Made by a program: the position numbers and the translations under genes. Under the pieces are notes generated by a model. That model had not been told where the DNA came from. It worked only from the letters and a program-made list of their open reading frames with translations, and searched no databases. Of a stretch of 19,162 nucleotides of DNA, positions 5,327 through 5,461 are shown in pieces (position 1 is the stretch's first letter; each line of letters begins with the position of its first letter). This DNA is from Escherichia coli (GTDB lineage Bacteria > Pseudomonadota > Gammaproteobacteria > Enterobacterales > Enterobacteriaceae), in assembly GCF_003334255.1 (NCBI RefSeq), contig NZ_QOWU01000072.1; one strand, given 5' to 3'.

Positions 5327-5358
5327 GTCGGATGCGCCGTCAGAGTGGCGTATCCGAT
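5327..5358. repeat. REP-like palindromic element
   Basis: gtCGGATGCGCCgtcagagtGGCGTATCCGat, an imperfect inverted repeat of the REP family. Confidence 0.6.
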
Positions 5359-5370
5359 GAATCACCACAG

Positions 5371-5401
5371 GCCTGATAAGTCGCGCAGCGTCGCATCAGG
5401 C
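5371..5401. repeat. REP (repetitive extragenic palindrome)
   Basis: GCCTGATAAGtcgcgcagcgtcgCATCAGGC, a typical E. coli REP with GCCTGATGCG/CATCAGGC arms. Confidence 0.75.
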
Positions 5402-5420
5402 AATGTGCTCCATTGTTAGC

Positions 5421-5461
5421 AACAAAAAAGCCGACTCACTTGCAGTCGGCTTTCTCATTTT
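5421..5461. terminator. Bidirectional rho-independent terminator between convergent aroG and gpmA
   Basis: aacaaaaaaGCCGACTcacttgcAGTCGGCtttctcatttt: 7-bp stem flanked by an A-tract on one side and a T-tract on the other. Confidence 0.8.

Follow-up and report, generated by a model that had tools for sequence, protein, structure and literature searches.

The spacer between the convergent genes aroG and gpmA of Escherichia coli has its closest described counterparts in two kinds of element, the overlapping bidirectional terminators of the SEnd-seq class (Ju, Li and Liu 2019) and the REPs, which are combined into BIMEs. About 60% of REPs are located in the 3'UTR between convergent genes, and as a class REPs and BIMEs bind gyrase, IHF and Pol I. 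In BIME-1, where Z1 and Y units are joined by a long conserved L linker, it is this linker that carries the IHF site (PMC3333891). Enrichment of gyrase cleavage is seen in a subset of tandem BIME-2 arrays, the cuts falling mostly on y-type units. For binding and cleavage by TnpA_REP both the GTAG tetranucleotide and a mismatch in the stem are needed (PMC3333891), and the insertion sequence IS1397 inserts specifically into E. coli REPs (PMC1525189). With regard to mRNA, some REPs protect the transcript upstream, an effect that depends on the context, and genome-wide the terminal REPs bring no gain in half-life. Furthermore, REPs situated 15 nt or less from a stop codon are reported to make the upstream gene less well translated (Liang et al. 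2015, cited in PMC12306157).

When compared with these systems, the aroG/gpmA spacer turns out to combine both of them. The site is itself an entry in the SEnd-seq list, being a convergent pair with an A tract on one side of a single GC hairpin and a T tract on the other, and there is no substantive difference from bidirectional Rho-independent terminators, the U tract on the + strand being interrupted. Beside the terminator is a pair of REP-like units which shares with BIME-2 the short-linker, head-to-head Y-Z layout and the location in a 3'UTR between convergent genes, but which differs from BIME-2 in being a single pair without tandem repetition. The distance between the feet of the two palindromes (13 nt) also sets the pair apart from BIME-1 (RIP-RIB), for which the corresponding figure in the yaaX-yaaA BIME is 35 nt. 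We propose, with a probability of roughly 85%, that the spacer consists of two layers of different age and function, an old shared terminator and a later, decaying REP pair. The terminator has already been catalogued and the whole spacer is made up of known kinds of element.

The spacer and its shared terminator

The window, by which we mean the whole stretch of 19,162 nucleotides that was analysed, is E. coli K-12-like, and a position in it is converted to the NC_000913.3 coordinate by adding 781368. According to the ORF list, aroG, encoding the Phe-sensitive DAHP synthase, occupies 4265-5317 on the + strand (NC_000913.3 785633-786685, annotated aroG) and ends with the stop codon TAA at 5315-5317, while gpmA, encoding the 2,3-bisphosphoglycerate-dependent phosphoglycerate mutase, occupies 5475-6227 on the - strand (NC_000913.3 786843-787595) with its stop codon at 5475-5477. 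The genes are convergent and are separated by 157 bp (5318-5474). The locus was found in all 5426 complete E. coli genomes; in about 40% of E. coli genomes the spacer fell into the 80-95% identity bands, and its query coverage was below 80% in 10 of the 5426, among them the two with the IS1397 insertion described below. The structure within the spacer exceeds chance level, with folding z-scores against shuffled sequences of -6.05 for the + strand and -5.2 for the - strand, and with none of 200 shuffles folding equally well. The two palindromes and the symmetrical hairpin that the preliminary description had placed in this 157-bp gap were all found there, both in the sequence and as inverted repeats. 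At the gathering threshold there were zero Rfam matches within the spacer. The Rfam matches to sRNAs and miRNAs that appeared with an E-value threshold were rejected as look-alikes of the terminator, the match to naRNA4 (see below) alone being meaningful. The NC_000913.3 annotation has no REP feature in the spacer and likewise none in a control region that does bear a REP, so that its silence is uninformative. Upstream of the region studied here, positions 1-440 of the window hold tRNA genes at 1-73 and 209-281 and Rfam matches to RtT RNA at 8-175 and 315-440, and thus a tandem tRNA/RtT repeat array in which each tRNA overlaps or precedes an RtT match.

The bidirectional, probably intrinsic terminator (5424-5461, both strands) was delimited by a terminator scan, by folds and by published 3' ends. 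It is composed of AAAAAA (5424-5429), GCCGACT (5430-5436), a loop (5437-5443), AGTCGGC (5444-5450) and a T-rich tract (5451-5461) that reads TTTCTCATTTT, and its hairpin has folding energies of -14.4 kcal/mol on the + strand and -18.1 kcal/mol on the - strand. On the + strand a GC-rich hairpin is followed by UUUCUCAUUUU, which is the form found by the terminator scan, and on the - strand the hairpin is followed by UUUUUUGUUG, as seen in the sequence and the fold. The scan called the + strand element alone and did not call the - strand. This is probably because the scanner extends the stem maximally and tolerates G-T pairs, which uses up the U tract (the stem in the fold is 13 bp). Since the U tract on the + strand is interrupted (UUUCUC), the two directions are probably unequal in strength.

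The published RNA 3' ends coincide with this hairpin. In Table 16 of the Harris et al. 2026 supplement (bioRxiv 10.64898/2026.03.23.713779), which reproduces the SEnd-seq table, the overlapping bidirectional terminator of entry 51 extends over 34 nt at 786791-786824 (window 5423-5456) and is assigned to gpmA:aroG in log and stationary phase, with the class 'gene_convergent_transcription' and without REP overlap. On the + strand, the aroG 3' end at 786824 (window 5456) comprises the hairpin plus UUUCUC and is given by both SEnd-seq and Term-seq, the latter having a + strand end at exactly 786824 (Adams et al. 2021, PMC7815308). On the - strand, the gpmA 3' end at 786791 (window 5423) comprises the hairpin plus UUUUUUG and is given by SEnd-seq alone, the Term-seq list (PMC7815308) having no call for the gpmA 3' end. 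The Term-seq list also contains zero + strand ends between 785904 and 786824, and hence none at the REPs. On both strands the mapped ends are located 6-7 nt beyond the stem, and release at this site looks canonically intrinsic in both directions. It had been claimed that the hairpin terminates both aroG (+) and gpmA (-) and that the mapping of 3' ends on the two strands could decide the matter; the ends at 786824 and 786791 are at the hairpin and not elsewhere, which supports the claim. Given an aroG end at 5456 and a gpmA end at 5423, there is a 34-nt overlap between the transcripts that takes in the stem. Two other + strand 3' ends in the Term-seq data are internal to aroG, at window 4378 and 4536 (785746 and 785904; Adams et al. 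2021, PMC7815308), and one of the two is also on the ORF-internal list of that study. The SEnd-seq table has a second bidirectional terminator within the window, at 18220-18253 (entry 52, 799588-799621, ybhA:ybhD:pgl).

Not one of the 5426 E. coli genomes lacked the terminator, and in eight Escherichia alleles its helix was 100% paired, with nine of the ten pairs invariant. Relatives were gathered by a pattern scan for the conserved C-terminus of GpmA, taking one genome per species, which gave at least 120 loci; Salmonella and many other genera were not among the loci sampled. Among the at least 120 loci listed, aroG was convergent on gpmA in 32. A GC-rich hairpin for which the 8 nt before it contain five or more A and the 8 nt after it five or more T was found in 23 of 33 Enterobacterales spacers (the 32 among the loci listed and the window), and the spacers of Hafnia and Yersinia fit by eye, which raises the figure to about 25 of 33. 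The distance from the hairpin to the gpmA stop codon was usually about 20-28 nt, and 5-53 nt overall, among the loci listed. The stem itself is GCCGACT in Escherichia, GCGTGGA in Enterobacter, Kluyvera and C. werkmanii, GCGCGG in Citrobacter sp. FP75, CCCGGC in Pectobacterium and GGCCGG in Rosenbergiella, where the entire spacer is 30 nt. Since the stems vary across genera and the layout is kept, it is the architecture that is conserved rather than the sequence. Furthermore, since the order of A tract, GC hairpin and T tract beside the gpmA stop codon recurs in about 25 of 33 spacers with different stems, the terminator can be taken as the ancestral part of the spacer. In Pluralibacter gergoviae and Pseudocitrobacter faecalis a block of ~5.2 kb is found between aroG and gpmA, which from its sequence looks like a TonB-dependent receptor together with an ABC transporter, and in both species aroG has its own separate terminator hairpin.

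The REP pair in the aroG 3'UTR

Both palindromic units of the spacer are extragenic, imperfect palindromes of 30-40 nt. The second of them, REP2 (5367-5402, + strand), is a genuine REP, recognised by its copy number, its fit to the consensus and its match to naRNA4 as a Z-type (Z2-like) unit in REP orientation. Its palindrome has arms at 5371-5384 and 5388-5401, in which 5371-5377 pairs with 5395-5401 and 5380-5384 with 5388-5392, and the stem keeps the AA/GC bubble; the folding energy is -15.8 kcal/mol on the + strand and -14.8 kcal/mol on the - strand. By BLAST, REP2 has copies in at least 40 places in each E. coli genome. Its edit distance to the Z consensus, which like the other REP consensus sequences was built from real K-12 REPs, is 4, and with the Z units of REP325 and two further K-12 BIMEs it shares 94% identity. 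The Rfam naRNA4 model matched it with E = 1.3e-5 and a score of 38.3 bits, which falls short of the gathering score. A label of Z1 for REP2 was dropped as REP2 resembles the Z units of REP325 just as closely as those of the yaaX-yaaA BIME, which leaves Z-type, Z2-like as the designation; the Z units of REP325 are named Z2 in a preprint. Also dropped was a REP consensus pattern that was too rigid and gave zero matches in the window at 3 or fewer mismatches.

REP2 has also been a target of IS1397. In strain Z1323HEC0016 (NZ_CP148382.1) the element is inserted at the centre or loop of the REP2 palindrome with a 3-bp duplication of GCA, and in NZ_CP048107.1 the junction between REP2 and IS1397 is the same. 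In the extracted NZ_CP148382.1 locus IS1397 occupies 1070-2499, and the site corresponds to window ~5386-5388. Junctions between a REP half and an end of IS1397 were seen in about 30 genomes, most of them at other loci.

The first unit, REP1 (5325-5360, + strand), was delimited by inverted repeat, fold and core motif and is best described as a degenerate Y-like palindromic unit in iREP orientation. The arms of its palindrome (5328-5338 and 5347-5357) are 91% complementary, and as RNA it forms a 15-bp stem (5325-5339 with 5346-5360) that starts 8 nt past the aroG stop codon and has an energy of -23.0 kcal/mol on the + strand and -15.6 kcal/mol on the - strand. REP1 contains the core CGGATGCG-N(8-20)-TATCCG, a motif of 14 bases for which there were 16 matches in the 438 kb scanned against 0.03 expected from shuffles, and the remaining 15 matches are all canonical REPs. 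Its first 13 nt are identical to those of a canonical REP beside phnD (L008 23294-23306), which represents the closest REP subtype. When the window was searched by nhmmer with a profile built from 12 REPs at other K-12 sites, the top two hits were REP2 (E = 4.4e-5) and REP1 (E = 0.016), a test that is partly circular since the members of the profile were picked by the same core motif. On the other hand, BLAST finds REP1 in a single copy, and an edit distance of at least 12 separates it from the Y consensus, which is the background level. Its upper stem is unlike that of canonical REPs and is still complementary, the place where CTAC would be expected (5359-5362) reads GAAT, and the only irregularities of the stem are G-U wobbles, the position of the canonical C-T mismatch being a C-G pair in K-12.

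On these sequence grounds, we regard REP1 as a degenerate REP and not as a consensus one, because it has the core motif and the canonical inverted position beside REP2. The preliminary description had spoken of two REP-family palindromes; this holds fully for REP2 and in part for REP1, which has the core motif in its favour and its single copy and background distance from the consensus against it. Farther along the window, a REP-like GC-rich palindrome (TTGCCGGAGGCGGCCTTAGCGCCCTCTCCGGCCAACG) is located on the - strand at 10896-10930, between the ORFs on the galE side and the modF side. It has an edit distance of 7 to the Y REP consensus and an nhmmer E-value of 0.34, and is possibly a diverged REP or a modF terminator.

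REP1 is inverted relative to REP2, and the two are placed head to head in the arrangement that Y and Z units have in BIMEs. The linker CACC (5363-5366), read from the sequence, is 4 nt long when counted after the tetranucleotides, compared with 12-17 nt in the other Y-Z pairs examined. The conserved GTAG/CTAC tetranucleotide is absent from both units of the window. Compared with canonical REPs, REP1 is without both the tetranucleotide and the stem mismatch, and REP2 of K-12 has ACAG (5367-5370) instead of GTAG. At this position the other seven alleles have GTAG in four cases (ES1, FDAARGOS_943, the Escherichia locus L127 and E. albertii), GGAG in two and ATAG in one, and since GTAG is found in four of these seven, the ACAG of K-12 is the derived state. 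In addition, K-12 REP2 carries A>T at 5381, with one stem pair broken. Across the eight alleles the two REP helices were 94% and 93% paired, with broken pairs and without compensatory changes; no covariation was found within Escherichia, where the eight alleles are too similar to one another. Alignments show the stretch between REP2 and the terminator (5403-5423) to contain a 7-bp indel (AACGACA/AACGAAA) at about 5420/5421, which the K-12-type allele does not have.

The REP pair was found in E. coli, in E. albertii and in one more Escherichia genome, and all other genera among the loci listed were without it. Since it is limited to Escherichia among these loci, it is likely to be a later insertion into the aroG 3'UTR. 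In C. werkmanii there is an independent single REP of Y type (GCCGGATAAGGCAACGCCGCCATCCGGCA) between aroG and the shared terminator, that is, on the same side as in Escherichia, which suggests that REP insertion is tolerated on, or drawn to, the side of the aroG 3'UTR. The idea that a weak U tract on the + strand is tied to the presence of REPs was abandoned: C. werkmanii has a REP together with a strong T tract, and in this small sample there was no correlation.

Competing explanations

The IHF and gyrase properties of REPs cannot be carried over to this pair as a matter of course, although the preliminary description had done so. For IHF binding the proposal failed on the linker, which is only 4-13 nt (depending on where it is measured) and has no L motif, and on the absence of any exact IHF consensus between the units. 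The sole match to the consensus has one mismatch and is inside REP2, and such one-mismatch matches number 55 in the window compared with 26 by chance. Since both the long L linker and the IHF consensus are absent, the IHF property of BIME-1 does not transfer. Convergent transcription generates positive supercoils, and the pair could still be envisaged as a DNA-level site for IHF and/or gyrase that organises supercoiling between two active convergent genes. The class-wide binding of gyrase, IHF and Pol I agrees with such a role, and a Y-like plus a Z2-like unit with a short linker resembles one unit of BIME-2, the class preferred by gyrase. However, gyrase cleavage favours only a subset of tandem BIME-2 arrays and mostly y-type units, whereas here there is a single pair in which the y-like unit is degenerate. 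Neither aroG nor gpmA is named in the accessible parts of the Topo-seq supplements, which is weak evidence. We consider a role of this kind very unlikely. A different question concerns the terminator, where release might result from convergent RNA polymerases running into each other (the Ju/Wang/Liu model), with the hairpin doing no more than pausing them. The SEnd-seq authors propose collision-driven release for the class to which the site belongs, and describe a greater efficiency where the gene pair is strongly expressed. gpmA is indeed highly expressed (base mean about 7300, table of Harris et al. 2026), and with the interrupted U tract of the + strand aroG on its own may be terminated only weakly by an intrinsic mechanism. 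Yet the members of the class, as described in the same source, 'do not resemble intrinsic terminators', whereas a canonical GC stem with A6 and T-rich tracts is found at this site, and its 3' ends have the short distance from the stem that is typical of intrinsic termination. It is therefore somewhat unlikely that collision is what ends these transcripts, although intrinsic and collision mechanisms are compatible and not exclusive.

Two further explanations concern REP1. It might be an RNA hairpin specific to this locus that serves aroG expression and resembles a REP by chance or convergence, in which case it could regulate how translation terminates or shield the 3' end. Its single copy, its background distance from the Y consensus and its non-canonical yet complementary upper stem would fit this, as would the fact that it is stronger than the other hairpins of the spacer, is strand-asymmetric (sense over antisense) and begins so close to the stop codon. 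However, a core of 14 bases with the right spacing, otherwise found only in canonical REPs, would hardly arise by chance in 438 kb, and the identity of its first 13 nt with the REP beside phnD points the same way. REP1 is also placed inverted and head to head beside a genuine REP, as in a BIME, and it is absent outside Escherichia among the loci listed. Moreover, the eight alleles contain no two-sided compensatory changes, several cells of that comparison being unpaired. A locus-specific origin is accordingly most improbable. There is also little to be expected, though marginally more, of the possibility that REP1 is a domesticated, Escherichia-specific REP whose sense-biased hairpin of -23 kcal/mol tunes AroG output. 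If this were true, REP1 would stall terminating ribosomes, or would form the real barrier to decay once the weak terminator hairpin had been removed, and such tuning of AroG would affect the entry into aromatic amino-acid synthesis.

A proposed spacer in two layers

The reading that we prefer remains that of an old terminator joined by a younger REP pair. The A6-GCCGACT/AGTCGGC-T-rich hairpin would act as one shared Rho-independent terminator for aroG on the + strand and gpmA on the - strand, and this shared layout would be ancestral for convergent aroG/gpmA in the Enterobacterales. In the Escherichia lineage, a BIME of two units, one Y-like and one Z2-like, head to head and with a very short linker, is then likely to have been inserted between the aroG stop codon and the terminator. 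Being located there, it would be transcribed within the 139-nt 3'UTR of aroG. The REP pair of K-12 would represent a decaying copy, in which REP1 has lost CTAC and the stem mismatch, and in which REP2 has changed from GTAG to ACAG and has had one pair broken. Since these REP hallmarks have been lost in K-12, the pair should be a poor substrate for the REP-associated transposase.

The REP pair does not set the transcript ends. Instead, it probably provides two extra stable RNA hairpins that slow 3'-to-5' exonucleases on the aroG mRNA, and by analogy with other REPs a stabilisation of this mRNA by the aroG/gpmA REPs is plausible. REP1, at 8 nt from the aroG stop codon, is within the 15-nt limit reported for the stop-proximal REPs (Liang, Rudd and Deutscher 2015), and differs from them in being degenerate. 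With its stem starting at this distance, REP1 may mildly hinder the termination of aroG translation.

Beyond annotation the significance of these findings is slight. The spacer does serve as a caution that the IHF and gyrase traits of REP classes are not transferable to an individual pair unless its linker and unit types have been checked. The site also offers a clean textbook case in which one hairpin ends two convergent genes, and into which, on our reading, a mobile REP pair would have entered the 3'UTR without upsetting the older terminator and then decayed.
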